Below, one piece after another: positions 12,947 through 35,621 of a stretch of DNA of 35,621 bases. Below the pieces are notes generated by a model. It ran no database searches. It saw only the letters and a program-made list of their open reading frames with translations, and was not told where the DNA came from. Made by a program: the position numbers and the translations under genes. The stretch covers positions 1 through 35,621 of the forward strand of contig VMTI01000114.1 of assembly GCA_013791675.1 (NCBI GenBank). The letters run 5' to 3'. The first letter of the stretch is position 1; the number at the start of each line of letters is the position of its first letter. The stretch comes from a bacterium (lineage in GTDB: Bacteria; CG03).

Positions 12947-12955
12947 GGAGGAATA

Positions 12956-19800: not shown

Positions 19801-21252
19801 TACTTCCCGCTCGTTCCCAAAACCGTGAGAAACGCGATGTCATATATTTTGAATGATTTACTCGGTAAACAACACCCATTAGTAGAACAAATTGACGCCG
19901 GACTGCAGCGCGCCGTTCAGGCGGCTATTGACAACAAATTGGGGAGAGCAGTTAAAACCGAAGAAGCCCTCAACTGGCTCGGCTTTACAACCCGCGGGAG
20001 AATGATTGACGGAAATATATCGACACTCCGGGACTTGGTATATGCCGACCTGATAGGAACACTCGGATCAGCCATAAAGAATACCACGCAGGAAACACAT
20101 ATAATCGCGGAATATGGCGGAGTAAAATGGAGTCGCGCGGCCTGGCGGAGTAAAACCGCAAAAGGCAGACAGGAAACAGACGAGGCCGATATCTATACCC
20201 TCGGCGTTGGCGTTAAATTCAGCAAAGGCAAAGGCGCTATAGGCGAAGCTTCTCAAGTAATGACAACCCTGTTCAGAGCAAAAGACAAAGGCAGTCGCCA
20301 GAAGGCATACCTCTGCGGAATAATAACGGCAGAAGACTGGGTGCCTAAATATGAAGCCGGGAAGATAACGGCAGACGAATTGGCGAGCAAACTAAAATTC
20401 ACATTGAGAACAGACGCTCAATACCAAATAGGAATGATGGTTATACTGGACGACCCAAAAGCGTATACCGAACCGGTTATCAATAACCTGACAAAAAGGG
20501 TAAGAGATAAAATACTGAAACTGAAAGAAACCGACCCCATTGCCGCAAAGATATTCTATCTCGGTCACCTTTCCGGCTATTGGGCGCAAGCAATGACACA
20601 ATACCCATATTACGCCGAAGAAACGGAAGCGCTTTATCGCGGGCCGGCAGGTAAACTGCTGGGGACATTCGGAACATGGCCTCCCCGTTTTGCCGCTATG
20701 GTAAACCGGTGGGCTCACGGCGGGGCTGACGGACGCAAGGCATTCATCAGATATATCCTGCAATGGATTTTAATAATAACAGCAGGTTCGACGATGGGTA
20801 TCAATTTCAAGAAATGGATAGGCCCTGCATCGTGGAGAATAGGGAACGGTTTTGCCACTGTACTTGGTGCCCCCGGTTATCTGGCGTTGGCTATCTCAAG
20901 TTATGTAGGCAGTATTATGACCGACAGTAAATGGGATTTAACAAAAGCAAATGATTGGATGTATAAAATGAGAGGAAGTATACGCGCCCCCGGACAAAGG
21001 CAAATCAAATCAACTGTCGAAGCCCTAACCACCCCGGGATTAACAGACTGGGAAAGATTAAAGATATTCACGCAAATGCCCCAGACTGAAGAATTTTCAG
21101 AGAAGCGCCGGAAGATAAAGCGAGATGTAAAAAAGGCAATAAAAAGTAAATCAACATACCAGGGCGGAACAGTACGAACCGGATCGTCCGGCGAAACCGT
21201 GAGAAGCGGAGGAACAGTAAGCACCAGAAGCGGCGGAACCGTGAGGAGATAA
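13801..21252 (+). CDS. giant polyvalent ejection-type protein (2483 aa) with sigma70-like, RadC/JAB and Dam-like N6A MTase domains
   Basis: Third gene of the ejection cluster. Sigma ~15480-16140; RadC ~16357-16700 (HNHPSG at 16576); MTase ~17794-18708 (DVFGGSG at 17926, DPPY at 18391); helical C-terminus with hydrophobic segments ~20740-20920. Confidence 0.9.
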   Translation: MALSADEFLGIKPKRKAQSADAFLGIKPSADEFLGIQEEQTPKPYAGLTPEQIQVEKERQRQAGTMPQTPQEQFIPMPEGGPRRDVFQQPPQIQPPIAQAPGAIQIPQAMQMPTPQQQGMQMPSMPVPQQMQPQPGPQMLPEQVEQLRQSVQPGEMAKMMWQGAVEGGATAASGFTGIYKVGEQIIKGEDLLTSMQTATDAIQKGQTLGDLLREGYEPQTKSVFQNFVAYAGRDLTAWALDTITNPKELAELYLWSKGIGMIRRAGVTGVNAIAEKFVDSPGVLGKLSRAGLAERKLADVLPKYTEADAVAIRKFFYNVDNKFGRGAADRVWRSLYEKGKTWEKSRVTSLIQKIKGAGAEKRTELLAKEILGQVKKAPVQRVSEGITGGEVKARLGQWGGGGIGKIKTPKGASTALEQIDDLIKTRASLPTKPTAEMPNPDAVLNDITGAINSAVKAAGEYFKSVGEEAFRYASGETLKNKIIDLVKKNPELREHLDIQVLMPAAVSPAAKPAEVKPAIVSEEAPEEEYVAPTAEQEETARILGTAELTKEEIAQGKQASVGRLISSIAKTEQRGNPSISFADLVQAGNIGTMKAYKNYIPGETKFSTYAYKSIRSAIREEIARQKNLITYPQSVRRKLNRVYKAIFEIQQDTGIVDRIPPTSRIAARTGMLNKEIDELLSTQLTRMEKLEQQEEGQKTTYIETLPGTEARQVEITEIKDRVSHLTKGLSERELQIIDLKYGLTSGSTMNVRDIADEFKISKTRVGQIIDIAISKMKARAGITTEATDEQITMLFEHKRALTETVQTELTFGTTKKRDAGALEMIKNMDLNKEREQVVLKEIKIKHIKTEGWKITDDKSAVKFVNLIRHPGIEHFTIIYTDKTGKIITYKVFSSGAVDYVDVKELYPILSRDMKADPNIVNFWIGHNHPSGNPEASTNDRILMKALTKIPKFAGHIITDHKTYTSIGKDGSERLKQQTQKLEDWSGVESSIKSINDIANSFMALTNKDAKMAVAILTTKQQNTIAAELINEKDLSKEMLDKLEKKYGASNITIVSNFNIKNPESAGIKKSKWVTEYNIYNREKKKITAELAEPAFRVAEDEKDNLGDFSYLHTPEETDILTPTNEEIQREWAGITREALNIWNKERETNFFYMIEHGENPFGVTGSEDPSLPPPQRAWIADGLGGEWDALPDFVKKKLNQADIRSKAYKATHADTGGTDRYTESMGIDDFNTVIDALHKVKPIGKRPTVAGPVDHDFINHYFTSPEGQKALRDNREGGITSKDVKEEIARMARIMIQWDEQAPIIQPTGNSKVPVAVYRRTVENTQFKKDNSPMQWAGAKDQMLGYILNILGLPSELNKVTAAGLEKLSRFEYVYDVFGGSGYMTLLAQELFKDAETNLNELDADMQKIWATIKTNPEGVKARIAELSTWIHMPMKSVPVDWWNHLKEKFGKYYWATDELWTAATILKNNTGRDTTTKISPTKVHEIWNSITPYSRKLNKANIEQRDAIEIIDEALKFPQNKAEKTLLILDPPYLWTSGYKHGANFERPAGFMELLDKLEQLNKKGISFMFFNSEPASVFPRVIYDWSQYLKFDEMQRRLNELAEMPGMTVLRMVAPAGVASSKFVPRKEIIITNLETGGYKAGKIKKLPWSKVSDYIKVTKIGIELIGQEIKGAPIENPLTTKQKRMIAVLAKNTPFQWEGDYTHEFRQFAERTIGKKRLTLMTETEGKELISAIMKYKKINREITNRTRTMNMSPALLKQQIHSIFPDKRRISELNDEQLKILNESLTLYEHTESVPMLHLIRYTSDWLGTWAGRQKSPAAMNLYHSFKSLEANTKDGREWRLKLIQQFREVFEGMNAKQREKIFNFMHRPKGTTMAEFMAERETYGLTDAEKKAALQARELWNRLFKAAGMKGERYWKEYQPLIFRMLKDPDTVIKEFRHLPKKEVEMFFEKQRIAEGDFILAGAEQLTDPIELFEIYSAGVVKKKYIWPAAANVEKYFPLVPKTVRNAMSYILNDLLGKQHPLVEQIDAGLQRAVQAAIDNKLGRAVKTEEALNWLGFTTRGRMIDGNISTLRDLVYADLIGTLGSAIKNTTQETHIIAEYGGVKWSRAAWRSKTAKGRQETDEADIYTLGVGVKFSKGKGAIGEASQVMTTLFRAKDKGSRQKAYLCGIITAEDWVPKYEAGKITADELASKLKFTLRTDAQYQIGMMVILDDPKAYTEPVINNLTKRVRDKILKLKETDPIAAKIFYLGHLSGYWAQAMTQYPYYAEETEALYRGPAGKLLGTFGTWPPRFAAMVNRWAHGGADGRKAFIRYILQWILIITAGSTMGINFKKWIGPASWRIGNGFATVLGAPGYLALAISSYVGSIMTDSKWDLTKANDWMYKMRGSIRAPGQRQIKSTVEALTTPGLTDWERLKIFTQMPQTEEFSEKRRKIKRDVKKAIKSKSTYQGGTVRTGSSGETVRSGGTVSTRSGGTVRR
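15480..16140 (+). other. sigma70-family domain (regions 2, 3, 4) inside the giant protein
   Basis: RLISSIAK..DLVQAGNIGTMKA..KFSTYAYKSIRSAI..PPTSRIAARTG..LSERELQIIDLKYGL..IADEFKISKTRVGQIIDIAISKMK is colinear with RpoD RLVISIAK..DLIQEGNIGLMKA..KFSTYATWWIRQAI..EPT.EE.A..LT.RE..VL..RFG...VTRERIRQIEAKALRKL. Confidence 0.92.
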
Positions 21253-21735: not shown

Positions 21736-23964
21736 ATGAAAAAAATACTGCTCGGTTTATTTTTATCTGTAGCGATATTATCGGCATGGTCTGACTCATT
21801 TTATCAGCCCGTTTACAACGACACTACCACACCGACAACTGTCGATTACCATGTGGCCGGCAGATTCTTCATAGGCCCGTCAACATATACATATGGCGTA
21901 GCGATATCATCATGGCAGATACGACTGCAGGACGGCACAATCATAACCTCAACGGCGGCATTCGCAGGAGCGGATAACCTAACATCTGAAATAGCAAGAG
22001 CAACCGCAAGAGAGAATGACATAGCAGTATCCACCGGAAATATACAAACGGACTTAGACATCGCAGAGGCGCGGCTTGTTTCCGTGGGAGTGGATACCGG
22101 CACGATAAAGGCGGCGCTGAACGCGGAAATTACGGATACCGATACAAACTTCGGGAATGTAGCCATAGATACCACGACATTGGGGACTGACCTTACTACC
22201 GAAATATCTGACAGGCAGACAGGTGATAGCGACCTCGGTTATTCTACGGGAGTTATAAGCGGGCAGATAGACAGTTTGCAAACACAAATATCAAATAATG
22301 ATGACGCGATAGAGGCACTCGGCGTAAGCACAGGCACAATATATGCGGCATTGCAGTCAACAGGTGCGGCTCTCTCCGCGGAGATTACAAGGGCGACCGA
22401 TAGGGAAAATGATATAGCCGTAGGCACAGGAACAAATAAAACGGCAATAGATTTGAATACATCGGGCGTTGCTGATTTGCGTGTTTCAACGGGCACGAAT
22501 TATGCGGCGATAAATTCTACGGCGGCGGCATTGACGGCGGAGATAGCAAGGGCGGTTGCGAGAGAAAACAATATAGCGTATTCAACGGGAACAACCTATG
22601 CGGCGTTGCAGGCGACATTCACATATTTGAATGAATATAAACTTGGAGTAACAGCGAAAGCCGCGGACAGCGAATTACTTGCCGGCAGGAATTACGACGC
22701 TTTTGTTTCTACTATGGGCGATACGATGAGCGGAGATTTAATTATAGAAGGATATGCGAATCCGATGAGCAACAGAAAATCGCTGATGTTAAAAGACAAG
22801 TATAGTGGTTTTGGCGGAACAATTACGGTGGACAGTGAGGGATTAAAAGTAATTAGTTCTGGGCAGTTAATACTTTATGGCGAGGATACAGCAGGTTTAT
22901 ATATCACATCTGACGGATGCGTTTTTCTAAAAAATGTGGAATTTGACCCCAATTTAACTCTAAGTATGAACGAAGGAAAAATCACAAACATCTCCACATC
23001 CCCCGTAAACAACGGCGACGCCTCAACAAAGGGCTACACGGATTACGCTATAATGAAGGCGACGGACGCAATCGGCGGCGGTTCAGGTGATATGACAAAA
23101 GCCGTCTATGATACCGACGCAAATAATGTCGTTGACAATGTTCAAAAGCGATATGTTTATTTCTCAAAAGTGGGAGAACTCTCATCTTTTACCGGAGATA
23201 GTTGGGGAAGTGATTTTAGACTTTTGCCGGATACCTACACCCTTACAAAAGCGTATATTATGCAGGGGTCGACAGGAACAACAGATACTATTATACACGT
23301 CGGAAATCAGGATAATCTTGAGATAGCGGCGTTCACAATTCCGGTGGGAGCTGATTGCGTAGAATTATCAACGAGCGTGGTTTTTAATAAATGCGATATA
23401 ATAAATTATCACATAGACGATATAGCAACTCCGACAAACTTAATGGTATGGAACGCCGGATTTGAGGACTCTCAAACAGGCGTAGCGGGTTCATCGTGGA
23501 CAGAATTAGGAACAGCGGAGAGTATAGGCAGGCAATCAGATTTTGCGCACAAAGGAACTTATTCCTGCCGCTTTGATAATTTAACGACTTCCTATTCTGG
23601 CAGGTGGATAGCATATTCCACGGTCACAATAACAGCGACGGAAACCTATACTGTATCGGCTTGGTTCAGGACGAATTACGCCACCACTACTAATATACGA
23701 TTGTATATTGACCTGTTTGACGCAGGCAATAATCTTGTCGGAACAGTGACAAGCGGAGCGACTAATTTAACAAGCGATAGCACGTGGGGGGGAATTTCAA
23801 TATCAACGACAGCGGCGAGCAATGTTACGCAGGGAAGATTAAATATAGACGCAAACGAAAGTATAAATAACGATGCCGAAGTATGGATAGACCAATGCCT
23901 TGTGGGTATAAATATCCCTGCTATCAGTAATCTTGCTATAACGCTGGAGCTTGAAAAGCAATGA
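21736..23964 (+). CDS. tail fibre/receptor-binding protein with coiled-coil repeats and C-terminal carbohydrate-binding-like module
   Basis: Three L..EI.RA..REN.IA..TG repeats, ITNIS.SPVNNGDASTKGYTD neck motif, C-terminal NAGFED..W..AHKGTYS (CBM4/9-like); signal-peptide-like N-terminus. Confidence 0.75.
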   Translation: MKKILLGLFLSVAILSAWSDSFYQPVYNDTTTPTTVDYHVAGRFFIGPSTYTYGVAISSWQIRLQDGTIITSTAAFAGADNLTSEIARATARENDIAVSTGNIQTDLDIAEARLVSVGVDTGTIKAALNAEITDTDTNFGNVAIDTTTLGTDLTTEISDRQTGDSDLGYSTGVISGQIDSLQTQISNNDDAIEALGVSTGTIYAALQSTGAALSAEITRATDRENDIAVGTGTNKTAIDLNTSGVADLRVSTGTNYAAINSTAAALTAEIARAVARENNIAYSTGTTYAALQATFTYLNEYKLGVTAKAADSELLAGRNYDAFVSTMGDTMSGDLIIEGYANPMSNRKSLMLKDKYSGFGGTITVDSEGLKVISSGQLILYGEDTAGLYITSDGCVFLKNVEFDPNLTLSMNEGKITNISTSPVNNGDASTKGYTDYAIMKATDAIGGGSGDMTKAVYDTDANNVVDNVQKRYVYFSKVGELSSFTGDSWGSDFRLLPDTYTLTKAYIMQGSTGTTDTIIHVGNQDNLEIAAFTIPVGADCVELSTSVVFNKCDIINYHIDDIATPTNLMVWNAGFEDSQTGVAGSSWTELGTAESIGRQSDFAHKGTYSCRFDNLTTSYSGRWIAYSTVTITATETYTVSAWFRTNYATTTNIRLYIDLFDAGNNLVGTVTSGATNLTSDSTWGGISISTTAASNVTQGRLNIDANESINNDAEVWIDQCLVGINIPAISNLAITLELEKQ

Positions 23965-24311
23965 AAAAACTATTTACTCTTTTAGCATTATTTTTTCTTG
24001 CCTTATTTTCTATTGCGGCGAGGGCATCTCAATGGAGTAAAGTTAGAAAAGCATACTTAAAAGCTCATCCTGTTTGCGAGGTTTGCGGTAGTAAGAAAAA
24101 ATTACAGGTTCATCATATAATTCCTTACGCAGAGGATAAGTCGCTGGAGCTTGAGCCGAGCAACCTAATAACGCTTTGCAGTCGGTGTCATTTGATTTTT
24201 GGACACTTTGGAAACTACAAAACATATAATCCTTTTGTTCGGGAAGACGCCGAATGGTTTAGAAAAAGAATGAAAAACGCGAAGATTATTGACGGAGATT
24301 TAGAAACGTGA
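23961..24311 (+). CDS. HNH endonuclease with signal-peptide-like N-terminus
   Basis: CEVC..LQVHHIIP..NLITLCSRCH; N-terminus MKKLFTLLALFFLALFSIAARA. Confidence 0.85.
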   Translation: MKKLFTLLALFFLALFSIAARASQWSKVRKAYLKAHPVCEVCGSKKKLQVHHIIPYAEDKSLELEPSNLITLCSRCHLIFGHFGNYKTYNPFVREDAEWFRKRMKNAKIIDGDLET

Positions 24312-24490
24312 TTGCCGACGAAATACGGGAACGGTTGGAAAAAATAGAGAAGGCCCTCGAACGCCTCGATATGGGGAATGTTATTTACAAGGAATTGACG
24401 GGTCATTATAATCGGCTGAAGGATGATATGAAAAAAGATATCGATGAGATAAAAAAAATACTTGATGGAGGTGATGATGGCGACACTTAA
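24308..24490 (+). CDS. small coiled-coil protein
   Basis: GTG start overlapping the HNH stop, GGAG upstream. Confidence 0.55.
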   Translation: MIADEIRERLEKIEKALERLDMGNVIYKELTGHYNRLKDDMKKDIDEIKKILDGGDDGDT

Positions 24491-24716
24491 ATTGAACGGT
24501 TACGCCCCGTGGCTTATGCTGATACTTGTTTTAGCGACAACGGCGGGGGCAATTCTGGTAAAAACCGGGGGCGTAAAAGAACGGATAAACAACAATTCCG
24601 CGCGAATATCCGGCAACACGGCTGACATAAAAGAATTGGACAAAATCTTCAATACTACGATAAAGCAAATATCAGAGGACTTGGGAAAGATTAAGCAGGC
24701 AGTGGGGGTTAAATGA
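24477..24716 (+). CDS. holin-like membrane protein
   Basis: GGAGG RBS; one TM helix (WLMLILVLATTAGAILV) followed by a coiled coil; upstream of the endolysin. Confidence 0.5.
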   Translation: MATLKLNGYAPWLMLILVLATTAGAILVKTGGVKERINNNSARISGNTADIKELDKIFNTTIKQISEDLGKIKQAVGVK

Positions 24717-24796
24717 TTTTCAATATCCCGGAATTTTGGTATAGTGTAGCAGGGGCATTGATTGTTGTATACGCAATAAGGAGTTTACTGAAATGA
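24713..24796 (+). CDS. 27-aa single-TM peptide in the lysis cassette
   Basis: MIFNIPEFWYSVAGALIVVYAIRSLLK*; overlaps the upstream stop and the endolysin ATGA. Confidence 0.45.
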   Translation: MIFNIPEFWYSVAGALIVVYAIRSLLK

Positions 24797-25176
24797 CGAC
24801 AGAACAATGGATGACGATTAAGCATTTCACCTATCGTGAATTTGTATCACCAGATACCGGCGAGGAGAATATGGATTATCGTATGGTTCATTTTCTTGAT
24901 ATTATGAGGCAGATATTAGGCTTTCCGATAGTGATAACCAGCGGGTATAGAACGCCGGAATATAATGCGAAGATTGGCGGAGTGGCGGACAGCGCCCATT
25001 TGCGCGGACTGGCGGTTGATATAAAATGCGTGAGCTCATTTACGCGCTGGAAGATAGTAAATTTTGTTATGAATTGGTATAATGGCGTAGAGGTAAGAAG
25101 GGCTGGGATTGGCGATACTTTTCTGCATATCGATATAGACAGCAGTTTGCCAAATCCCGTGATGTGGACATATTAA
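24793..25176 (+). CDS. endolysin, peptidase M15A family
   Basis: ITSGYR..N..IGG..SAHLRGLAVDI...FLHIDI Zn-peptidase motifs. Confidence 0.9.
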   Translation: MTTEQWMTIKHFTYREFVSPDTGEENMDYRMVHFLDIMRQILGFPIVITSGYRTPEYNAKIGGVADSAHLRGLAVDIKCVSSFTRWKIVNFVMNWYNGVEVRRAGIGDTFLHIDIDSSLPNPVMWTY

Positions 25177-25186
25177 GGAGGATATT

Positions 25187-25639
25187 ATGAAAATTGAAAT
25201 TGACATGAAGATTGTGAAAGATTTGGTGGCTCACATGAAAGAGCAGCTCGGCACGGCAGAAATGAAAAACAAATTCCTGCAAATCCGTACGGACTGGAAG
25301 GCCAATCCCCTGAAAGTCAAAGGATCCATCAAAGACTTCCTCGCGCAAATGCAGATAAAATTCGCTATGGTCGACATCTTCGTCACCACGGTTATGGCCG
25401 CCGCCGACAAAGCCTCGGCATTCTTCAAGGGAATAGGGCAAATAGACCCCAAAACAAAGACCGGGGCCGAATGCCTCGAGGCCGGAGCGCTATTCCTGGA
25501 CAGCGTGGTTAAATTCCCCATGTCCTTCACCGGCCGGCTCCTCGAAATGTTCGACAAGAAAATATTTTACTTCCTGCTCCAACTGTTCTTCTACTTCCAC
25601 AAAAAGAAGAAAAATGACGGCTATGTGATAGAGATATAA
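25187..25639 (+). CDS. hypothetical protein (lysis region)
   Basis: AAGGAGG RBS; hydrophobic C-terminal segment followed by KKKK. Confidence 0.65.
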   Translation: MKIEIDMKIVKDLVAHMKEQLGTAEMKNKFLQIRTDWKANPLKVKGSIKDFLAQMQIKFAMVDIFVTTVMAAADKASAFFKGIGQIDPKTKTGAECLEAGALFLDSVVKFPMSFTGRLLEMFDKKIFYFLLQLFFYFHKKKKNDGYVIEI

Positions 25640-25641
25640 CC

Positions 25642-26133
25642 ATGAAAAAGTTTACATATTATCTGGTAGCGATAGCTCTGTTTTCAACACAATGCCACGC
25701 ATGGTCATGGTTCGGCGCCGAATTCAAGAACGAAATGACCAAGCAGCAGAACAGCACCAACAAGCGCCTATCCGATATTAAGGCCGGAATCAATGATGTT
25801 CAGCTTAAGCTCGGAAATATCTCGCTGTCTCTCCAGGCCCAGGCAAACGCCACCGCAAAGGTTCAAGCCGGAATCGACAAGAGCAATACGCAGAGCGCCG
25901 GCCGCGATATTATCTCAACAGAGAACAACAGCACAGAACTGATGCTTAAAATCTTTGAGGGCGTCTCGGCCTTGTTTCTCGCAATGTTCGCTTTCATGAA
26001 GGCCCGCGTAAATGTGCTCTCGAAACAGAACGAATATCTTACCGAAAGCCGAAAAAAATATCAGGATCGCTTTCTGAAACTGCTTTCCCCGGAATACGAA
26101 AAACTCGTAGACAAGGAAAATCCCGAATCGTAG
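25642..26133 (+). CDS. membrane/periplasmic coiled-coil protein, possibly spanin-like
   Basis: Signal-peptide-like N-terminus, coiled coil, second hydrophobic helix (IFEGVSALFLAMFAFM); last gene of the lysis cassette. Confidence 0.5.
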   Translation: MKKFTYYLVAIALFSTQCHAWSWFGAEFKNEMTKQQNSTNKRLSDIKAGINDVQLKLGNISLSLQAQANATAKVQAGIDKSNTQSAGRDIISTENNSTELMLKIFEGVSALFLAMFAFMKARVNVLSKQNEYLTESRKKYQDRFLKLLSPEYEKLVDKENPES

Positions 26134-26212
26134 AACGAAAAAAAAGAAAACCCCCGCAACAACCGAAAATCTTTCTCACCCCCCTACCCCCCAGACGCTT
26201 TCGCATTCTGTT

Positions 26213-26244
26213 CTATTATGTGTCAGATTACCGGATTTGTCCAG
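26213..26244 (-). promoter_or_regulatory. phage-specific promoter motif, copy P1 (leftward)
   Basis: Minus strand CTGGACA-AATCCGGTAATCTGACA-CATAAT-AG. Confidence 0.75.
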
Positions 26245-26778
26245 CCCAACATCAAAATCCAAACATAAATTCCCCGATTTCACTCACAAATCAACAGAAA
26301 CCCCTCAAATTCGCTGTTTAAGCCACTTTCCCCCATTCAACGAGTAACGAGCCGATACTTTAACCATTATGCGAAATTTAAACCATAAAACCCCCCATAG
26401 CTTTTGAAATTAAACCAATGTCAAGACCCCCTCTTTGGCACTGGATGGCATATTATAGGGGTGTACCACGGTTCATCACTCGACCCAGTGCGCCCTATAT
26501 GGCGAGCCGACACCCCCCTCCCCCCCCTATGCAATGAGCAGAACAACGGCGACCGCGAAAGGACAGCACCAGGATCGCAGCACTACACACAGCACAGCAC
26601 AGGGCAGGGGCAGGCAATACAGGGTAGAGCCGGTTCGTAATACGCACGAGGTCGAGCACAGAGGCACGAACGACAGCGACGGCAGACACAGACACGCGGG
26701 AGAAGGCGAGCACAACAGACAGCAAGCGAAGCAGGGCAGTAGCGATAACGGCGGGGAGAGCGTGAAAATCAAGGCGTC

Positions 26779-26876
26779 GCAAGGACTTTCAAGCCCAAGT
26801 TGTGATAATGTTGATTATGTAAACTTTTAGAGACCGGAGAGCCCACGAAAATGCCGACAGGGCAAGGACTTTCAAG
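26779..26876 (+). repeat. 15-bp direct repeat GCAAGGACTTTCAAG (26779-26793, 26862-26876)
   Basis: Exact repeat on either side of the first dif-like site. Confidence 0.85.
26798..26825 (+). other. dif: dif-like XerC/XerD recombination site 1
   Basis: AGTTGTGATAA-TGTTGA-TTATGTAAACT: 11-6-11 layout, partial dyad, right arm matches the B. subtilis-type XerD arm TTATGTAAACT. Confidence 0.8.
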
Positions 26877-26935
26877 GGCAAATACTACTTAATACCCCTT
26901 AATACCCTTTCACGAAGGGTGCACGAACAGGGAAA

Positions 26936-26963
26936 AGTTTACATAACATATTTTACTTTCCGA
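26936..26963 (-). other. dif-like site 2, inverted, degenerate XerC arm
   Basis: Minus strand TCGGAAAGTAA-AATATG-TTATGTAAACT. Confidence 0.6.
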
Positions 26964-27270
26964 AGGACAGAGCCAAAAAAGAGGGCAAATCGTACCCCAA
27001 CGAACTCCCCGAAGCAGCGGCCGGCGCACCGAAGGGAAAAAGAAAGGCGAGCGAAAGCCGAAAGGCGGGAGCCGGGCGGGAGCCAGCAGTAAACAGCGAG
27101 AACAATAGAGATAGAATAAATAAAGAGACAACAACAACAACAAAGAGAAAGAACAGAACAAAGAGAACAGAACAGAACAGAACTAAGAACAGAACAACGC
27201 ACGCACGCGAAACAAGACGCGCGAAAGACAAGGGGGGCAAGGCTCGGGACAAAGGCTCGAACAAACCCGA

Positions 27271-27302
27271 CTGGACAAGAGGGCAAAAGCAACACATAAT
27301 AC
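27271..27302 (+). promoter_or_regulatory. phage-specific promoter motif, copy P2 (early genes)
   Basis: CTGGACA-AGAGGGCAAAAGCAACA-CATAAT-AC, ~70 bp upstream of the first early ORF. Confidence 0.8.
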
Positions 27303-27374
27303 AACAGCAGCGGACGACAGGACGCCGGAAAGAACGAAGCCGAGCGGACAGAAGCGGACGAAAGAGAGGACAAA

Positions 27375-28445
27375 ATGGAAGACAGAAGCGGAACAAAGAC
27401 AAAAAGCGAAATCAAATGGCTGGAAGAAGCGAAACACAACCGCTACCTAAGCCTGGCGGGAGAAGGGAGACTGCACACGCTGAAGTGGAACGAGGCACGG
27501 AAGGAAGGAGACCGCCGGAAGGCGGAAAGCGAGGAAGAAATGATAAACCACGAAACAGACAAAGCGGCGGCGCGCAACACCATCAAAGTCGGCGACACCG
27601 TAACCGTAGACCCACAGCTGACCACAGACCCCTACAACCGCAGAGGACAGAGCGGAACGGTAACGCAACTGATGGGCGACAAGGCCACGGTCACCTACGA
27701 GAAACCGCACGAGGCCTGCAACGGATACCGCACCAGGGCAGGCTACTACCACACAGACGCCCTGATAAAGCAGGAGCCGGAAGACGAAGGACTGCCGACA
27801 CCGGAGCAGGACGCGCAAATCGCCAAAGAGCGGAAAGCATACGAAGACACGGAGCGCGAGCCGGAGAGAACCAGAAAAGAACATCTCATCCACCAGTACA
27901 ACCACGGCGCAATCACGACAGCGGAGCAGAAGGAGCTGGACGCACTGGAAGCGAGGGAAAGAATGGACAAGAATTTCAAAGAGCCGGAGGACACGTTCAA
28001 CGGCAGGCTGAACAAACACGCAAAACCGAGCGACACACAGACAGAGCGGGTAAAAGCAGCCTACGAAACAGGGCTGGAACACGGCAGGGAAATCGCGGAG
28101 GAGGAAGCGGAAGAACAGCGCGACAACGCCACGATAGCCGGATACGAACAGGGCTACGAGGCAGGGCGCAAAAGAAGCGCGATCCGCGGAAACAAAGCGG
28201 AAGACGGAGCGGAGCAAGAAGCAGACGGCCTGATAGGAAAGGGAATCACCATCACCGGCCTGGACGAGCTGGGCTGGTGCGAAATCTGGTGGGCAATAGA
28301 CGCGGCCGTAATCAGCAGACTGGGCACAATGAAGACAGCAACGCACCAGGACGAAGTGGACTGGGCGACAAACGCCGTGAAGCAACTGCAGAACGCCAAA
28401 AAGCAGATAGGGAAAATAGCACATCCGATAGGGGCAGAGGACTAA
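27375..28445 (+). CDS. early protein, charged, with a KOW/SH3-like segment
   Basis: GAGAGGA RBS; IKVGDTVTV...GQSGTVTQL.GDKATVTY resembles a KOW/SH3 barrel; synonymous T avoided. Confidence 0.7.
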   Translation: MEDRSGTKTKSEIKWLEEAKHNRYLSLAGEGRLHTLKWNEARKEGDRRKAESEEEMINHETDKAAARNTIKVGDTVTVDPQLTTDPYNRRGQSGTVTQLMGDKATVTYEKPHEACNGYRTRAGYYHTDALIKQEPEDEGLPTPEQDAQIAKERKAYEDTEREPERTRKEHLIHQYNHGAITTAEQKELDALEARERMDKNFKEPEDTFNGRLNKHAKPSDTQTERVKAAYETGLEHGREIAEEEAEEQRDNATIAGYEQGYEAGRKRSAIRGNKAEDGAEQEADGLIGKGITITGLDELGWCEIWWAIDAAVISRLGTMKTATHQDEVDWATNAVKQLQNAKKQIGKIAHPIGAED

Positions 28446-28447
28446 AC

Positions 28448-28511
28448 GCCGAAACCCGGGACAGCAACCGGGTCCGCGGGAAACGGTCAATCCGCGCTGA
28501 TGAGGCAGACC
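28448..28511 (+). ncRNA. type II hammerhead ribozyme
   Basis: GCC-GAAA-CCCGG/CCGGG-TC-CGCGG/CCGCG-CTGATGA-GGC: full core; GUC cleavage after 28474; loop I GGTC can pair with 3' tail GACC. Confidence 0.92.
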
Positions 28512-28546
28512 ACAATACCGGCAGCAGGCCGGAAAGAGAGGAAAAG

Positions 28547-28783
28547 ATGAACGCGATCGACGCAAAGACAAAAAAGAAAAGCCGCCCATTCGTGCTGTGG
28601 GCAGACTGGAGAGATGCCAGCTCGCTGATGAGAACCCTGTGCCGGCTGACAAACAAGAGACCCCGGTGCTACAGATACATAAACACCGGAGCAGACGACA
28701 TCGCCGTGATAGTAAGCGACACCCGGCTAACAGAGAAAGAAGCGGACGCCGCATACTCGGCATGGATAAACGGGAAAGGCTAA
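28547..28783 (+). CDS. hypothetical early protein (78 aa)
   Basis: GAGAGG RBS before MNAIDAKTKK; the real part of the long track ORF 27416-28783. Confidence 0.65.
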   Translation: MNAIDAKTKKKSRPFVLWADWRDASSLMRTLCRLTNKRPRCYRYINTGADDIAVIVSDTRLTEKEADAAYSAWINGKG

Positions 28784-28818
28784 ACGAACCGCCGGACACC
28801 GGCAGAGGAGAGGGTAAA

Positions 28819-29139
28819 ATGACACACAAACTAATCATAATCAGCCTGCACGACGCACAAGCGGAATGCACCTGCGGACACTGGCGAATGATAGGAACAG
28901 GGGAGCGGAGCAAGAAAGAGATACGAGCGGAATACAGAAAGCACAAAAAAGGAGAAAGCACAATGGAAACAAACAAGACCGAAGTTTTCAAATCAGCAGT
29001 AGGCGACAGAAAGGGATGGGCATTTTCAGTAGGCAGGAACTTTGTATCGGCGCTCTACAAGACACAAAAGGAGGCCAAGCAAAAACTGAAAGCCTACTTG
29101 GGAACAGGCAAGTTTGACTGGTACGGGACTGCGGAATAA
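28819..29139 (+). CDS. hypothetical early protein with in-frame internal start at 28963
   Basis: GAGGAG RBS before MTHKL (CTCGH motif); second AAGGAG RBS before METNK. Confidence 0.6.
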   Translation: MTHKLIIISLHDAQAECTCGHWRMIGTGERSKKEIRAEYRKHKKGESTMETNKTEVFKSAVGDRKGWAFSVGRNFVSALYKTQKEAKQKLKAYLGTGKFDWYGTAE

Positions 29140-29155
29140 AAAGGAGGAAAGCAAA

Positions 29156-29404
29156 ATGAAGCAATGGAAAATCAACGTGTTCAAGGACTGCATCGTGGAA
29201 ACGGACGGAGAGAAAACGCGGATAGTATGCGAGCGCCCTAATTACAGAGGGTCGGAGGAAAACTTCGAGAAGGACGGAGCGCTCATCGCGGCCGCGCCGG
29301 AACTGCTTGATGCGTGTAAAATGGCAGTAAAAAAACACGGCGAATTTGATTATCTTATGAAGGCAATCGCAAAAACGGAAGGGGGCGAGGATGATTATCA
29401 TTAA
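29156..29404 (+). CDS. hypothetical phage protein (LIAAAPELL motif)
   Basis: AAGGAGG RBS; DGALIAAAPELLDAC motif common in small phage early proteins. Confidence 0.7.
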   Translation: MKQWKINVFKDCIVETDGEKTRIVCERPNYRGSEENFEKDGALIAAAPELLDACKMAVKKHGEFDYLMKAIAKTEGGEDDYH

Positions 29405-29570
29405 AATTGAAACAGAGAACGCAGCATTTGAAGCGCCGGACAAAGACCACGAGGCCGCGCGGATATTGCGGAAGCTCGCGGACAGGTTAGACCGTCACGA
29501 TTGGCCTGTATCGCTTTATGATATAAACGGGAACAATGTTGGAACAGTGGAGGAAAAAGAATATGAATAA
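29391..29570 (+). CDS. 59-aa phage protein
   Basis: MIIIKIETENAAFE...EAARILRKLADRL...DINGNNVG; missing from the ORF track; overlaps both neighbours. Confidence 0.7.
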   Translation: MIIIKIETENAAFEAPDKDHEAARILRKLADRLDRHDWPVSLYDINGNNVGTVEEKEYE

Positions 29571-29904
29571 TGAACTCAAATGCACAGACGAAATAGTCAA
29601 CGGAAGGCAGGCGCTGAAGCGGCATGACGGCCTGGTGGTATTCCCGGACGCTAACGACCCGGAATTGGACGCAATCCGCAAGAGCGCGCCAAAGAAGGCA
29701 GTCATACAAGCCGTGGCGATCCGCAGGGCACAACAGATAGCGCATAACTACGCGGAGAAATACGCGCCGGAACTCCTGCCGTATTTCAAGATAACCCCGC
29801 TGATAAACAACCGGCGCATGCGGAGATATTTGACAAGCGGAGCGCGATTGAAGCGCGAAAAACTGGACAAACGGGAAAATCTAACACATAATAGGGTGCA
29901 ATGA
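29563..29904 (+). CDS. hypothetical protein
   Basis: GGAGG RBS before MNNELK. Confidence 0.6.
   Translation: MNNELKCTDEIVNGRQALKRHDGLVVFPDANDPELDAIRKSAPKKAVIQAVAIRRAQQIAHNYAEKYAPELLPYFKITPLINNRRMRRYLTSGARLKREKLDKRENLTHNRVQ
29863..29894 (+). promoter_or_regulatory. phage-specific promoter motif, copy P3 (recombination/replication genes)
   Basis: CTGGACA-AACGGGAAAATCTAACA-CATAAT-AG. Confidence 0.8.
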
Positions 29905-30040
29905 AACAAATTGATAGCAGCGGACATCGGAAAGCAACAACCGGCAACGAACAAATTTTAACGTCCGGCTCGACCCAACGGAGGACATCATCACGTCCGC
30001 TGCACCCGCGGGCGGCCGGACTAAAAAAGGACAAAATACA

Positions 30041-30313
30041 ATGAAAGAAGAAAAGCCGATACAGGAAAAAATAGTTTACGACATCATGTCCATAATCTGC
30101 CCCGCGCGAACAGAGCTGATAAAGATAGCGGCCATGAGGCGCGGCGTATCATGCGCGGACAGACACATGAGGTTTCTGTCAGACCGGGGAATCGTAATAA
30201 ACGTTAAAAAAGCGAAGAGCGACGACAGCACGGACACATGGGAAGTTGTCGCGCCGTACACGCCCAAGAAGATCGGCCCGAAATATCAGGCGGACTTGGG
30301 ATTGGTATTATAA
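30041..30313 (+). CDS. hypothetical, possibly winged-helix DNA-binding protein
   Basis: AAGGA RBS; ADRHMRFLSDRGIV helix followed by a beta hairpin. Confidence 0.5.
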   Translation: MKEEKPIQEKIVYDIMSIICPARTELIKIAAMRRGVSCADRHMRFLSDRGIVINVKKAKSDDSTDTWEVVAPYTPKKIGPKYQADLGLVL

Positions 30314-30324
30314 GGAGCGCCAAA

Positions 30325-30525
30325 ATGACCAAACCGATAACCCACTGCGGAGAAATAGCAGACGCAATCAAGAAGATATTCCCGGACATCGTAGAATTCC
30401 ACCAGCTTCGGGAGAGCATACTCATGCGGATAAAGCACAGCGACGGCAAGAAATACACGATAACGATACACCCGGAGCAGAGGATAAGCGCAGCAACCAA
30501 AAAGGAAAGAGGGGTAAATGAATAA
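30325..30525 (+). CDS. hypothetical protein
   Basis: AAGGAG RBS before MTKPITHC. Confidence 0.55.
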   Translation: MTKPITHCGEIADAIKKIFPDIVEFHQLRESILMRIKHSDGKKYTITIHPEQRISAATKKERGVNE

Positions 30526-31336
30526 GCTTTCAACGGAACTCGATAAGCGCTCCCTCGGCATGAGTGGCATAAATATGCTCTTTAAGTGCGGCGAGCAATT
30601 CCGTCGCCGTTACATTATGAACGAAATCGTCCCGCCCGGCATAGCCCTCATTATAGGAAGCAGCACCCACAAAAGCATAGAAGTCGACCTCACCGAAAAG
30701 AAAGACACAGGCAAGCTGGCACCCGGCGACCTGCTGGCAGAAATAGCGTCCGAGCAGATAAAAGGCGCATGGGATAAGGGCGTGATATTGAACGATGACG
30801 AAAAGCTGGCCGGCAAGCGGGCAACACGAAACGACGCCATAAACACAGCCATAGCCATGTCAAACCTTCATCACGAAATCGTGGCCCCAACCATAGAGCC
30901 AATAAACTTAGAGGACTATTTCAGCTTCGACATCAGCGGAACGAACTGGAAGCTGGCGGGCACATCCGACATCGAGGAAAAGGTGGCAGGCGGTATCGGA
31001 CTGCGGGACACGAAGACAGCAGGGAAATCCCCGGGGAAGACAGACGCGGACGACAGCCGGCAGCTCACAATGTATTCGCTCAAAGTATTAAAGCAAACGG
31101 GATCCCTGCCGAAGCACATACAGCAGGATTACCTCATCAAAAACAAAACACCGAAATATGTTTCACAGGAAACAGAGCGCACAGCGGGCGACATCAAAAC
31201 CCTGCTGGTATGCGTGGCGCAGGCGATAAAAGTGATAGAATCAGGGATATTCACGCCATGCAGCACATCAGCATGGTGGTGTGCCCCGGCATATTGCGGA
31301 TACTTTGGCACGTGTAAATATAGGAGGAGAGGATAA
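30518..31336 (+). CDS. PD-(D/E)XK exonuclease, Cas4/RecB-like
   Basis: N-terminal Cys, GSSTH, LAGTSD..LRDTKT, QLTMY, C-terminal C..YCGY..TC cluster. Confidence 0.85.
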   Translation: MNKLSTELDKRSLGMSGINMLFKCGEQFRRRYIMNEIVPPGIALIIGSSTHKSIEVDLTEKKDTGKLAPGDLLAEIASEQIKGAWDKGVILNDDEKLAGKRATRNDAINTAIAMSNLHHEIVAPTIEPINLEDYFSFDISGTNWKLAGTSDIEEKVAGGIGLRDTKTAGKSPGKTDADDSRQLTMYSLKVLKQTGSLPKHIQQDYLIKNKTPKYVSQETERTAGDIKTLLVCVAQAIKVIESGIFTPCSTSAWWCAPAYCGYFGTCKYRRRG

Positions 31337-31677
31337 TGGTAACAATAAAAACAACGCCGAAAATAGGAAAAGAAATGCTTGCACTTTCAGATAAGTTTAG
31401 AAAAAATAGGGCACGGTTGATGAATGCCGAATACACAAGAATAACTAAAGAAGTTTGGGAAGATTGGTCTGTTTCATATAACCATATAGGCAGAAGAATA
31501 AGCTCCCTGAAAGGATTACAGCGGGCAGTAGAACAACGCCGAGCCGTGGTCGTTCCGAAGTGGAGCGGATTTAGAAAGCCAAACCCGGCGGCATGGATGA
31601 TAAACCTAAACGGTGCGATATTGGTGAGATTGTTCGACAGCGGAATGTATATTTACAGGACTATAAAATGGGAATAA
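31336..31677 (+). CDS. hypothetical protein
   Basis: AGGAG RBS; coupled to the upstream stop. Confidence 0.55.
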   Translation: MVTIKTTPKIGKEMLALSDKFRKNRARLMNAEYTRITKEVWEDWSVSYNHIGRRISSLKGLQRAVEQRRAVVVPKWSGFRKPNPAAWMINLNGAILVRLFDSGMYIYRTIKWE

Positions 31678-31889
31678 TTAAAAACTACCTCGCCCGCCGG
31701 AAAGCGAAAAAGCTCAAAGCAGAGCAGGTGGCGAAATTTGAGGCAGATTTTATCGCGCACATCATAGCCGAGCGAAAGCTGATACTGTCGAAGCAAAGCG
31801 AATTCAGCGCAATGGACAGACAGCTTGTGCTCGACACTTATGATAGGCTGAAGCTGAAGGGTAAAGTAAAGGAGGAAAAAGGGCAATGA
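31668..31889 (+). CDS. hypothetical protein
   Basis: AGGA before MGIIKNY; overlaps neighbours. Confidence 0.55.
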   Translation: MGIIKNYLARRKAKKLKAEQVAKFEADFIAHIIAERKLILSKQSEFSAMDRQLVLDTYDRLKLKGKVKEEKGQ

Positions 31890-32239
31890 AAAAGACAAAA
31901 GATGATTTGGTGAGAGAGAAGGAGGCGGACAGGGCAGAAATTGTCCAATTGAAAGAGATGATCCTTACCACAGCCGAAAGGGATTTGAGGTTTCGCAAAG
32001 AATTCTCAAAGGTGTTGGACGGCTATATGGAAAGAGTAGAATATGGAATGATGTCCACCCGAATCCCCGAACCGCTCAACTGGGAAGGCATATTTTTCAG
32101 GGTTGGTGAACTTCACTCCGACGCAGGCAAGAACAAGCTCATCAAAACCAACAATGCGTTGCGCGAGAAGCTGGCGGAAGCAGAAAGAGAACTGGATGAG
32201 ATAAACAGGAACAGAACACAGGAGGTAATCAGAAGATGA
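31886..32239 (+). CDS. hypothetical coiled-coil protein
   Basis: AAGGAGG RBS; ATGA overlaps. Confidence 0.65.
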   Translation: MKKTKDDLVREKEADRAEIVQLKEMILTTAERDLRFRKEFSKVLDGYMERVEYGMMSTRIPEPLNWEGIFFRVGELHSDAGKNKLIKTNNALREKLAEAERELDEINRNRTQEVIRR

Positions 32240-32652
32240 GCAGAGAAACGACTGACACAAGGGGTTCGAATTATCTCGAACCAGGAATTCACGTAAAGCT
32301 GACCATTGACCACGTGGAGAAAGGGCACACGACGGGGAATCATCCGTATTACACTTTCTACTTCGACACACCCACGGGTGGCAAATGGAACAAAAGGTTT
32401 ATGGTGTGGCTGTGCCCGCCTATCCTTAAGGCGCTCGGGTGCAAGGAGACAAAGCCCGGAGTATTTGACTGGGACACAGACGAAGTGGAAGGAAGGGCAA
32501 TCGAGGCTGATAGCGTGATTGAAACAGTAAAAGGCAAGGAATACACGACAATCATCAACATCGAGCCCGCGACAGCCGACAGAGAAGCCGGAGATGATGA
32601 CGAATTCGGCGCGGGCCCAGCTGATCCGCCGGAATTTGACACGCCCGTATAG
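32236..32652 (+). CDS. putative phage single-stranded DNA-binding protein (DUF669-like OB fold)
   Basis: YLEPG.H...I..VE...GNHPY, GKEYTTI, acidic tail DDDEF...PEFDTPV; lies among recombination genes. Confidence 0.6.
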   Translation: MSRETTDTRGSNYLEPGIHVKLTIDHVEKGHTTGNHPYYTFYFDTPTGGKWNKRFMVWLCPPILKALGCKETKPGVFDWDTDEVEGRAIEADSVIETVKGKEYTTIINIEPATADREAGDDDEFGAGPADPPEFDTPV

Positions 32653-32670
32653 GGCAAAGGAGAAGAAAAA

Positions 32671-33087
32671 ATGATGTTCGTAACTGAAAGGAAACTGAGG
32701 AAAGTAATCGAGGAGACGCTCGGCGTCGAGGGCAGTGGCGAGAAGAAAGTTCTTGGGCTGAAGAAAGAAATCGATGAGAGGGAAAAGCAGATCACATCAC
32801 TGAAAAAAGACATCGGCGAACTGGAGCTTAAGAAAGGGCTCGAGGAAAAGGAAATCAAGCACCTCGTCAAAATGAGAGAGGAACAGCAGAACATTGAGGC
32901 GACGAAGAAGGAACTTGAAATGCAGAGGAAGTATCAGGAAAAAGAAATGGCCATGCAGACAAGGTTTCATAACGACACCATCTCTCTGCTGAAAGAGGGG
33001 CACGATAAGTTGCAGGAGGTCTACGGCAAAATCATGGAGAGATTGCCCAACGTCAACATGCACATTAAGAGGAACGAAGAGGTATGA
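32671..33087 (+). CDS. coiled-coil protein
   Basis: E/K-rich heptads; AAGGAG RBS. Confidence 0.65.
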   Translation: MMFVTERKLRKVIEETLGVEGSGEKKVLGLKKEIDEREKQITSLKKDIGELELKKGLEEKEIKHLVKMREEQQNIEATKKELEMQRKYQEKEMAMQTRFHNDTISLLKEGHDKLQEVYGKIMERLPNVNMHIKRNEEV

Positions 33088-33431
33088 GAGATATATTCCC
33101 CGGCGTGCTCGGACAGGCTGGACTCAATGTCTGGAAGAATCCGCTCACAAGAATGATGGAATTGGAAATCCCGGGGAGAAGGGTAGCTGTGTCCGAGACC
33201 GACCTGCACCGTTACAGCATGCAGGGAGCATGGGCAGAACAGGCAGTGGCGCTACCACCGTCGTTTGATGGTGCGTACAGTCAAGAGATATTGTCACGAA
33301 TGATGATGGAGATGACCGGTGTGCCGAGCGATTATGTCGGACGGAGTAAAAGCGTAGAGCCTATAAATACGCTCGAAAAACTGCGGAGAGATTTTGAAAA
33401 CTGGTGCGGAAATGTATTGAACGAAGAATGA
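33084..33431 (+). CDS. hypothetical protein
   Basis: ATGA overlap; GAGG RBS. Confidence 0.55.
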   Translation: MRDIFPGVLGQAGLNVWKNPLTRMMELEIPGRRVAVSETDLHRYSMQGAWAEQAVALPPSFDGAYSQEILSRMMMEMTGVPSDYVGRSKSVEPINTLEKLRRDFENWCGNVLNEE

Positions 33432-33463
33432 AATCCCCGAAATGGGGAAAGGAGTAAAGTAAA

Positions 33464-34219
33464 ATGGCCGAAGTAAAACAGGAACTGACAAAGAAAGACC
33501 AGGCAAGCGCTCTGGTTGACTGGATGAAACCCGCAATGGCGACCGCCCTGCCCCGGCACCTGAACGCCGACCGCATGGTGCGAATCGTGCTCACAGAGAT
33601 GAGGCGCAACCCCAAACTGGTGACCTGCACAAAGCAGAGCCTGGCCGGATCCGTGATCATGGCCTCACAGCTTGGCCTCGAACCCGGAGTAAACGGGCAG
33701 TGCTGGCTCGTGCCCTACGGCAACGAAGCAACATTCATCATCGGGTATCAGGGGCTCATCGAGCTGGCCTACCGCAGCAACATGGTGGAATTCGTAATAG
33801 GAGAAGCCGTGTACGAAAATGACGAATTCACTTACTCGCTCGGCACAGAGCAGTTTATCAAGCACGTGCCGGCAGAGGCCGACCGCGGGAAGCTCAAAGC
33901 GGCCTACGCCGTAGCCAAAATGAAAGGCGCGAGCATGCCCGTATTCAAAGTGCTGACGAAAGAAGATATCCTCAAAGTAAAGGCATCTTCGCCCGCGGCC
34001 AACAGCGCACACAGCCCGTGGAATACGTGGCCGGAAACGATGTGGGTAAAGACAGCCGTCAAAAAGCTGATGAAATTCATCCCGAAATCAGCGGAGATTA
34101 ACAAGGCGTTGGAAGCGGACGACAGGGTGGACGCGGGAAAACCGCAGCCCTTTAGCGACGTCATCGACCTGCCGGAGGAGAAGGAAGGAAAGGGAATCGA
34201 GATAGAGGACGTAAAGTAA
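33464..34219 (+). CDS. recT: RecT single-strand annealing recombinase
   Basis: ALPRHLNADRMVRIVLTE.RRNPKL..C...S, SQLGLEPG, LVPY, IIGYQGLIELAYRS, SPW..WPETMWVKT. Confidence 0.95.
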   Translation: MAEVKQELTKKDQASALVDWMKPAMATALPRHLNADRMVRIVLTEMRRNPKLVTCTKQSLAGSVIMASQLGLEPGVNGQCWLVPYGNEATFIIGYQGLIELAYRSNMVEFVIGEAVYENDEFTYSLGTEQFIKHVPAEADRGKLKAAYAVAKMKGASMPVFKVLTKEDILKVKASSPAANSAHSPWNTWPETMWVKTAVKKLMKFIPKSAEINKALEADDRVDAGKPQPFSDVIDLPEEKEGKGIEIEDVK

Positions 34220-34227
34220 ATGAGCAC

Positions 34228-34294
34228 GCGTGGCGGCACTGTGATCGGTCGACAAAGTGCATTAGGCAGGGTGCAAATCCCTGCCCGCCACGCA
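34228..34294 (+). ncRNA. tRNA-like structured element 1
   Basis: 9-bp GCGTGGCGG/CCGCCACGC stem stacked on a GCAGGG-TGCAAAT-CCCTGC T-arm-like hairpin; intergenic. Confidence 0.55.
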
Positions 34295-34307
34295 TTAAAA
34301 GGAAGAA

Positions 34308-35240: not shown

Positions 35241-35250
35241 GGAGAAAACA

Positions 35251-35537: not shown

Positions 35538-35621
35538 GCGAATATAAACGGCTTGAAAAGTATTTGAATACCGACAAAAAAGGATATAAACCTTATGACC
35601 GCATAGTATGTAAAGACGGGG
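35534..35621 (+). CDS. hypothetical protein (partial, runs off right edge)
   Basis: GGAGG RBS; MSEYKRLEKYLNTDKK... Confidence 0.5.
   Translation, partial: MSEYKRLEKYLNTDKKGYKPYDRIVCKDG

Follow-up and report, generated by a model that had tools for sequence, protein, structure and literature searches.

The window analysed here, a stretch of 35,621 bp, is an entire contig (C209) of a metagenome-assembled genome (MAG) that totals 2.14 Mb in 301 contigs, and the runs that contain the phage are groundwater metagenomes. Its gene content is that of a tailed double-stranded DNA (dsDNA) phage with all genes on the plus strand. The late and early genes are separated by a non-coding spacer, in which lies a sequence (site 1) with the layout of dif, the chromosomal site of the recombinases XerC and XerD. 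At a distance of 110 nt, a second sequence (site 2) repeats the XerD arm in inverted orientation. The features of the locus and of the phage genome are collected in Table 1.

The search motif, GATAA-N6-TTATGTAAACT, was derived from the dif of the host family and not from the phage, and site 1 matches it at all 16 core positions. When at most one mismatch was allowed, site 1 was the single match in the window, against 0.00 expected, and none of 100 shuffled sequences contained any. When at most three mismatches were allowed, four matches were found against 0.24 expected, and site 2 is among them with two mismatches. The XerD arm by itself, with at most one mismatch, has three matches in the window against 0.47 expected, a number reached by one of 100 shuffles. 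With these values and its canonical layout, site 1 is the good 11-6-11 dif that the original prediction had recognised.

The XerD-arm 11-mer occurs six times in the MAG, and three copies are preceded by GATAA at a distance of exactly six bases: the phage site, a site between ordinary host genes on contig C8, and a site on contig C272. The same core is present in eight of nine other genomes of the family, with XerD arms identical to that of site 1 at all 11 positions, and in none of 31 genomes outside it; the reversed control motif gave one match in the 41 genomes. The C8 site, ACTTACGATAA TATTTA TTATGTAAACT, represents a chromosomal version, ACTT[A/C]CGATAA TATTTA TTATGTAAACT, that is found in six genomes (G000 to G005, with the ACTTCC variant in G005), and this conservation identifies it as the chromosomal dif. 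Counted on the sequences, site 1 is identical to the dif of the MAG at 23 of 28 positions. The layout, the XerD arm and the GATAA pentamer are shared, whereas three outer bases of the XerC arm (8 of 11 identical) and the central region differ, as do the location on a phage and the presence of an inverted half-site nearby. The XerD arm of site 1 and the TTTAGAG flank that follows it are also those of the chromosomal dif of G002 and G004.

The XerC arm of site 1 is of a type that occurs elsewhere. It agrees at 10 of 11 positions with a dif-like site of a sister genus (contig C3 of G007), which reads AGTTATGATAA TATCTA TTCTGTAAACT and is followed by the same TTTAGAG flank. A scan of the GTDB species genomes with AGTTRTGATAA-N6-TTMTGTAAACT gave eight loci in all; two of these, in Cloacimonas MAGs, have both arms identical to site 1, and two others are records of Finegoldia magna. 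A passage of PMC3025954 states that the Firmicutes-type dif also fits Elusimicrobia.

The MAG encodes the corresponding enzymes, namely a XerC-like protein on contig C266 (TIGR02224, 317 bits) and a XerD-like protein on C95 (TIGR02225, 314 bits), both slightly below the equivalog cut-offs and above that of NF001399, and an FtsK gamma domain on C193. Because of the core match, the real type of the XerC arm and this enzyme set, we regard site 1 as a canonical dif-type site of the host lineage, and it is probably used by the host XerC and XerD (XerCD).

The third copy lies at 84-111 of C272, a plasmid-like contig with ParA and RepA_C, and reads CTCGTTGATAA AGTTAA TTATGTAAACT. Its central region is also unlike that of dif, and G004 carries the same plasmid-type site. 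This site indicates that extrachromosomal replicons of the host use such sequences. Besides the C272 site (L003), mobile-type sites in three other genera of the family (L014, L015, L016 and L017) share the arm CTGAyTGATAA and, after the XerD arm, a flank of the CCCCGTAGGGTAAAA type. The shared arm and flank point to a family of putatively Xer-dependent elements in the lineage.

Site 2 is of a different quality. Its inner XerC pentamer, AGTAA, deviates from GATAA at two positions, its XerC side agrees with the dif of the MAG at 5 of 11 positions (counted on the sequences), and its outer six nucleotides are no better than 38.6% of all window 6-mers, which is chance level. Because this arm is no better than chance, the arrangement is one full site plus an inverted XerD half-site, and not a pair of dif sites. 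Thus the identity and inversion of the XerD arm, as originally predicted, hold, whereas the second dif lacks a recognisable XerC arm. The predicted perfect inverted repeat of 14 bp was confirmed, and its identity reaches 3 nt past the XerD arm on both copies. When the region was folded as single-stranded DNA (ssDNA), only the XerD-arm stem and a few further pairs formed (z-scores of -1.8 and -2.8), and the XerC sides and spacers remained unpaired.

Table 1. Positions of the Xer-type sites, the surrounding spacer elements and the annotated phage genes in the window
Feature	Position	Strand	Remark
Site 1, full dif-type XerC/XerD core site	26798..26825	+	11-6-11 layout
Site 1, XerC arm AGTTGTGATAA	26798-26808	+	sequence
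Site 1, central region TGTTGA	26809-26814	+	sequence
Site 1, XerD arm TTATGTAAACT	26815-26825	+	sequence
Site 2, inverted XerD half-site	26936..26963	-	XerD arm and TTT exact
Site 2, XerD arm TTATGTAAACT	26946-26936	-	identical to site 1 arm
Site 2, central region AATATG	26952-26947	-	sequence
Site 2, XerC-like side TCGGAAAGTAA	26963-26953	-	not convincing
Perfect 14-nt inverted repeat	26815-26828 and 26933-26946		104 nt between arms
Non-coding region, 1.24 kb	26134..27374		between last late and first early gene; holds both sites
GCAAGGACTTTCAAG, exact 15-mer, copy 1	26779..26793	+	ends 4 nt before site 1; inside D1 (26752-26798)
GCAAGGACTTTCAAG, copy 2	26862..26876	+	in inner segment; part of D1 copy 2 (26835-26881)
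Tandem CTTAATACCC, two units	26888-26907	+	inner segment
5-bp hairpin	26905-26919	+	inner segment, follows tandem CTTAATACCC; seen in folds
Promoter-like site, TGGACA, 17 nt, CATAAT	27272..27300	+	faces early genes
Mirror promoter-like site	26215..26243	-	inverted repeat I1; faces left
Small terminase	630-1001	+	gene annotation
Large terminase	1002-2450	+	gene annotation
P22-like portal	2692-4512	+	gene annotation
Capsid	5364-6425	+	gene annotation
2,483-residue protein	13801-21252	+	gene annotation
HNH endonuclease and endolysin	upstream of non-coding spacer	+	gene annotation
Last late gene	25642-26133	+	borders spacer
First early gene	27375-28445	+	borders spacer

Sites of the same type are present in other viral genomes. 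The exact 22-mer of the site has no match in IMG/VR, and the dif-type pattern with TTT gave 47 loci against 25 for the reversed control, a count that is weak by itself. However, the six unconstrained outer positions of the XerC arm carry 5.2 bits in the 47 loci against 1.4 in the control, and C followed by C or T precedes GATAA in 44 of 47 sites compared with 3 of 25. Because the unconstrained XerC arm is conserved, most of the 47 loci are real Xer sites. An inverted arm within 400 nt was found at only one of them (L139), and the inverted pair is therefore peculiar to the phage in the window.

Ten of the 12 dif-type records of at least 39.5 kb (39.5-65 kb) were tested for recombinases, and nine lack a PF00589 match. 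Five genomes (G042, G045, G046, G048 and G050; L174-L186) are 39.5-44 kb long, are 99-100% complete according to CheckV, and contain one canonical dif-type site each; a tyrosine recombinase, PF00239 and ParB_N are all absent from them. In four of the five, the site follows a small gene by 2-32 nt and precedes the gene for the large terminase by 0.5-1.1 kb, unlike the site of the window phage between late and early genes. For all four, PHROGs confirmed the large terminase; it identified the small gene as a small terminase in G042 only. The window phage and G042 are distantly related (capsid 35% and portal 22% identity). A search for a prophage form with the large terminase of G050 returned only one 4.3-kb MAG contig.

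Three IMG/VR records showed features of their own. A 33.8-kb contig (L139, 5207-5611) has, within 400 bp, three Xer-like sites of which one is inverted; this looks like an array of integrative mobile elements exploiting Xer (IMEX) or a pdif-like arrangement. An unrelated virus (L026, 50.9-kb contig) has TTATGTAAA(C/T)-type repeats at 4020-4260, in an iteron-like cluster that occupies both strands, which suggests that such a word can also be a repeated protein-binding site. The large terminase of G045 (L177, 9116-11587) has 823 residues, compared with 542 in the related protein of G050, and its extra middle segment may be an intein.

We tentatively favour the explanation that the host XerCD and FtsK keep a circular, carried form of the phage monomeric. 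The phage DNA would persist as a circle in the dividing host, as a plasmid-like prophage, in a carrier state or in pseudolysogeny. Homologous recombination, to which the RecT/exonuclease pair of the phage itself would add, would generate phage dimers. The host XerC and XerD would occupy their respective arms in each copy of site 1; once septal FtsK had activated XerD, two crossovers would convert the dimer to monomers, a reaction equal to that at the chromosomal dif and at the site of the plasmid-like contig C272. Site 2 would be a putative XerD-binding half-site only, and the flanking 15-mers would be candidate accessory sites. A canonical site with a 6-bp spacer and a perfect XerD arm suits an FtsK-dependent reaction. 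The sequence identity, the host enzyme set and, within the data examined, the lack of an integrated form are observed, and from them we infer the binding, the recombination and the circular carried state. This proposal corresponds to the second of two outcomes in the original prediction, the resolution of dimers of an episomal form, which fits the data better than integration.

Several points weigh against it. The outer six nucleotides of the XerC arm of site 1 rank in the top 17.5% of window 6-mers, which is not significant, on a pooled XerC-arm matrix in which other host lineages predominate. Genes for partition, plasmid replication or a repressor were not recognised on C209, and ParB_N is missing from all five complete dif-bearing IMG/VR genomes; a plasmid-like life is thus unsupported by gene content. 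No circular junction of the phage contig is visible. The Logan assemblies described below are contigs, which drop rare variants, so that minority integrated or inverted forms would be hidden. No match to PF00589 (tyrosine recombinase) or PF00239 (serine recombinase) was found within the 35.6 kb of C209, an incomplete contig, and a recombinase could lie in the missing part of the genome. The original remark of no visible integrase therefore applies to the contig and not to the whole phage. The explanation also leaves site 2 and the flanking 15-mers without a role.

No close relatives of the phage were found in IMG/VR with two flanking proteins, its region has no match among GenBank phages, and the best match of RecT in JGI metagenomes (57% identity) is on a 2.6-kb contig. 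An alignment-based capsid search gave 37 loci, of which 14 records of at least 23 kb were examined. None of the 14 has a clean site of the same dif type, and 12 lack an integrase; the closest (G051, 50% capsid identity, flagged as a provirus) has no dif-like motif. A further point against the proposal is that this clade may consist mainly of virulent phages, for which the resolution of dimers would be of no evident use. As none of the 14 relatives carries a clean site, we regard the site as a lineage-specific acquisition.

A broader proposal, which we consider rather doubtful, is that recombinase-free tailed dsDNA phages with a faithful copy of the host dif, relying on the host XerCD and FtsK for lysogeny or carriage, form a widespread undescribed class, and that in the window phage the inverted XerD-only half-site and the two 15-mers make up a nucleoprotein control element. 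Through such an element the reaction could be directed or timed, or bound XerD could unload SMC-type complexes from the circular phage DNA.

The first outcome in the original prediction was that the host XerCD integrates the phage at the chromosomal dif. In its full form, lysogeny of the IMEX type, XerCD would recombine site 1 and either the chromosomal dif or a Xer site on a plasmid, inserting the whole phage as at dsDNA attP sites of the VGJphi type, and the same enzymes would excise it. The Xer-site evidence is the same as for the resolution of dimers, and the contig has no recombinase, ParB or other maintenance gene. The XerD arm and TTTAGAG flank match the dif of G002 and that of G004, the latter a genome in which the phage contig is present as well. 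Passages of PMC12715192 document this lifestyle for inoviruses and double-jelly-roll phages, and those of PMC5357621 for VGJphi and TLCphi. We nevertheless consider it somewhat unlikely for the window phage, because no integrated form was found and because the site itself, with its unlike central region, perfect XerD arm and 6-bp spacer, favours FtsK-dependent monomerisation.

The chromosomal dif of the MAG is unoccupied, and that of G004 is intact too, although G004 holds the phage contig. No hybrid site or second phage copy exists in 10 family genomes, and a capsid search of 26 phylum genomes gave no match beyond the identical contig in G004; prophage copies split at the site, which the original prediction suggested looking for, are thus absent from the family and phylum genomes examined. 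Logan contigs of four groundwater runs from three studies cross the sites uninterrupted (X1, 24615-27117; X2, 24467-27117; X3, 26563-26941; X6, 26696-27086), and among those listed there are no joints or loose ends over 26563-27117.

The central region TGTTGA differs from the TATTTA of the host at positions 2 and 5 (4/6 identical), leaving one contiguous identical base at each end, that is, on each cleavage side. Judged from the sequences, this mismatch would hinder exchange with dif but make no difference when one phage site recombines with another. The central region of the phage does not occur in the dif of any genome of the lineage, and a 22-mer scan gave two unrelated matches. In addition, insertion of a full canonical site at dif would create two direct dif sites, which FtsK-activated XerCD should delete. 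A DUF3653 activation factor, as found in IMEX of the TLCphi type, is absent; PF12375 has no match in the whole MAG, the phage contig included. The DUF3653 family is known only from beta- and gamma-proteobacteria (PMC6744903).

The known IMEX phages (VGJphi, TLCphi, CTXphi, double-jelly-roll vibriophages and gokushovirus prophages) likewise have, according to passages of PMC5357621, PMC12715192 and PMC7062461, a recombinase-free genome with a dif-like site. They are small ssDNA or tailless phages that are integrated at dif and whose attP is usually degenerate in one arm or has a longer spacer. In contrast, the window phage is tailed and exceeds 35 kb, and it has a canonical site and no integrated form that we could find. 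Phage attP sites described in a part of PMC3025954 have degenerate XerD arms and longer spacers, and site 1 differs from them by its perfect XerD arm and 6-bp spacer.

It is clearly unlikely that site 1 has no Xer function at all, being either a relic of host DNA from near dif or an operator or origin motif of a phage protein that resembles the XerD arm. In its favour, no close relative was found in which conservation of the site could be judged, an unrelated IMG/VR contig has iteron-like arrays of TTATGTAAAC-type repeats, the site adjoins a likely control or origin region, and on the pooled matrix the outer part of the XerC arm does not reach significance. However, a 16/16 core match with the correct spacing is unexpected by chance, and the flanks are not host DNA, with only the site region matching family genomes. 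Both arms recur together as dif-like sites elsewhere, and unrelated integrase-less viral genomes carry full sites with the conserved XerC arm described above. Moreover, the contig of run X6 is identical to the window over 26696-27086, despite a variant phage strain upstream that differs at 43 positions in 22984-24311.

The inverted XerD arms might instead be a functional unit that works without full recombination, or a switch that inverts the 104-nt segment, both of which we consider very unlikely. As a unit, the arms could act as a roadblock or unloader of SMC-type complexes or as a repressor or insulator of the early promoter. The 14-nt identity runs past the end of the arm in either copy, a XerC arm is lacking at site 2, and the pair lies in the late/early control region, bracketed by mirror promoter-like sites. 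XerD-only unloading sites are reported in the terminus of B. subtilis (Karaboja 2021, as cited in a passage of PMC10945525). Nevertheless, the complete canonical XerC arm and spacer of site 1 would be superfluous for a XerD-only role, and inverted arms nearby are almost confined to this phage (1 of 47 sites in IMG/VR within 400 nt). A 104-nt loop is probably short for synapsis. The inner segment contains no promoter-like site, and an inverted form of it, another check proposed originally, was not found among the contig pieces listed for the four runs.

A CTXphi-type attP, in which the inverted sites fold in ssDNA to a forked hairpin that mimics dif and to which the original prediction had likened the pair, can be rejected on structure with near certainty, since despite the inverted arrangement and a spacing of about 100 nt only the XerD arms pair, and the phage, with its terminase, P22-like portal and capsid, is a tailed dsDNA phage.

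Borrowing of the host XerC and XerD is textbook knowledge for plasmids and for small filamentous, micro- and tailless phages, whereas a tailed phage is assumed either to encode an integrase or resolvase of its own or to have a strictly lytic life. No tailed phage relying on a host-type dif was found in the literature, as far as titles, abstracts and passages show. Among the parallels are ColE1 cer, pSC101 psi and the C272 site, where a host-enzyme site with a non-dif central region lies on a non-chromosomal replicon and the proposed task, conversion of dimers to monomers, is the same. cer and psi have about 180 bp of accessory sequence with PepA, ArgR or ArcA and are FtsK-independent (in part after bioRxiv 10.64898/2026.02.23.706985). 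The window phage differs in having no identified accessory region and a perfect XerD arm, and in being a tailed phage for which the episomal state is predicted.

Phage P1 with loxP/Cre and the plasmid prophages are circular tailed phages that likewise need dimer resolution, according to passages of PMC5357621 and PMC8026635. They encode their own recombinase, as circular plasmid prophages usually do with Xer-like enzymes (part of PMC8026635), whereas the window phage would rely wholly on that of the host. The pdif modules of Acinetobacter plasmids also have inverted Xer-type sites close together on a mobile replicon, a likeness noted in the original prediction. It does not extend further, because pdif modules, as far as the sources describe them, are two full sites that flank cargo genes, whereas the window has a half-site without a XerC arm and an inner 110 nt without a gene.

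If the dependence on host XerCD is real, it would reveal a hidden route to lysogeny or carriage that is invisible to integrase-based lifestyle predictors. For uncultured phages, the host would become predictable from the sequence of the dif copy, which here points to one family of a poorly known groundwater phylum, and the system would allow the action of XerCD and FtsK to be tested on 40-kb viral circles. The question is general and directly testable because the same motif is present in complete, recombinase-free viral genomes of 40-44 kb from other lineages.

The spacer around the sites has further structure. The T fraction is 0.246 in 26779-26965, compared with 0.064 and 0.034 in the flanking non-coding parts, and this T-rich island in a strongly T-depleted spacer suggests selection on the sequence that holds the sites. 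The window contains the 15-mer GCAAGGACTTTCAAG only twice; the copies flank site 1 at a distance of 83 nt from each other and belong to a direct repeat (D1) of 47 nt whose second copy is 70% identical to the first. We consider the two 15-mers candidate sites for an accessory protein. Mirror elements at 26208-26243 (minus strand) and 27272-27307 (plus strand) bracket about 1 kb of the spacer and share a 16-nt stretch after CATAAT. A 55-residue minus-strand open reading frame (ORF) behind the leftward promoter-like site was rejected as a gene because it looks like noise. The inner 110 nt between the sites contain no ORF, and scans of the spacer found no Rfam family, tRNA or relevant terminator. 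The GC skew changes sign at 26244-26530 (-0.32 in 26001-26500), and words of the AAATTAAACCA type are repeated (D15); this stretch, which lies some 270 nt away from site 1, is a possible replication origin.

The early genes include a PD-(D/E)XK nuclease, RecT and a replication-initiator-like protein; no family could be assigned to the first early protein, and its structure model in the atlas is poor. At about 32% identity, the capsid resembles those of Bcep22-like Burkholderia podophages, of Stx2-converting phages and of others. Together with the 2,483-residue ORF, this kinship places the phage among what we take to be podophages with giant virion proteins. Searches for short identical stretches, of the kind used for host assignment by CRISPR spacers, were negative both for 1-20000 of the phage in 26 phylum genomes and for 24000-35621 in 10 family genomes.

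C209 is incomplete and has no terminal overlap. It starts within an open frame, and the translation of positions 1-110 resembles the C-terminus of a cytosine methyltransferase, although Pfam gave no match for the 36 encoded residues and no PF00145 methylase exists elsewhere in the MAG. Two other contigs were considered as the missing part. C243, which alone among the contigs of the MAG resembles C209 in its A>T skew, proved to be the gene of a host surface protein, and the integrase encoded on C75 has a host PolX as its neighbour. In G004, another species-level MAG of the same genus, contig C31 (1-35594) equals the phage contig at 100% identity, starting at the same base and ending 27 nt earlier than the window. 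The common start within a gene suggests a common assembly break, for example at a variable or repeated segment.

The plus strand is strongly T-depleted, with an AT skew of 0.276 over the contig and of 0.57-0.81 at 27-29 kb, whereas most host contigs do not exceed |0.1|. Several frames are open on both strands at 27001-29000 because stop codons are rare there. The variant strain of run X6 has 43 differences in 22984-24311 and 7 in 24309-25205, the region of the tail-fibre, HNH and endolysin genes.

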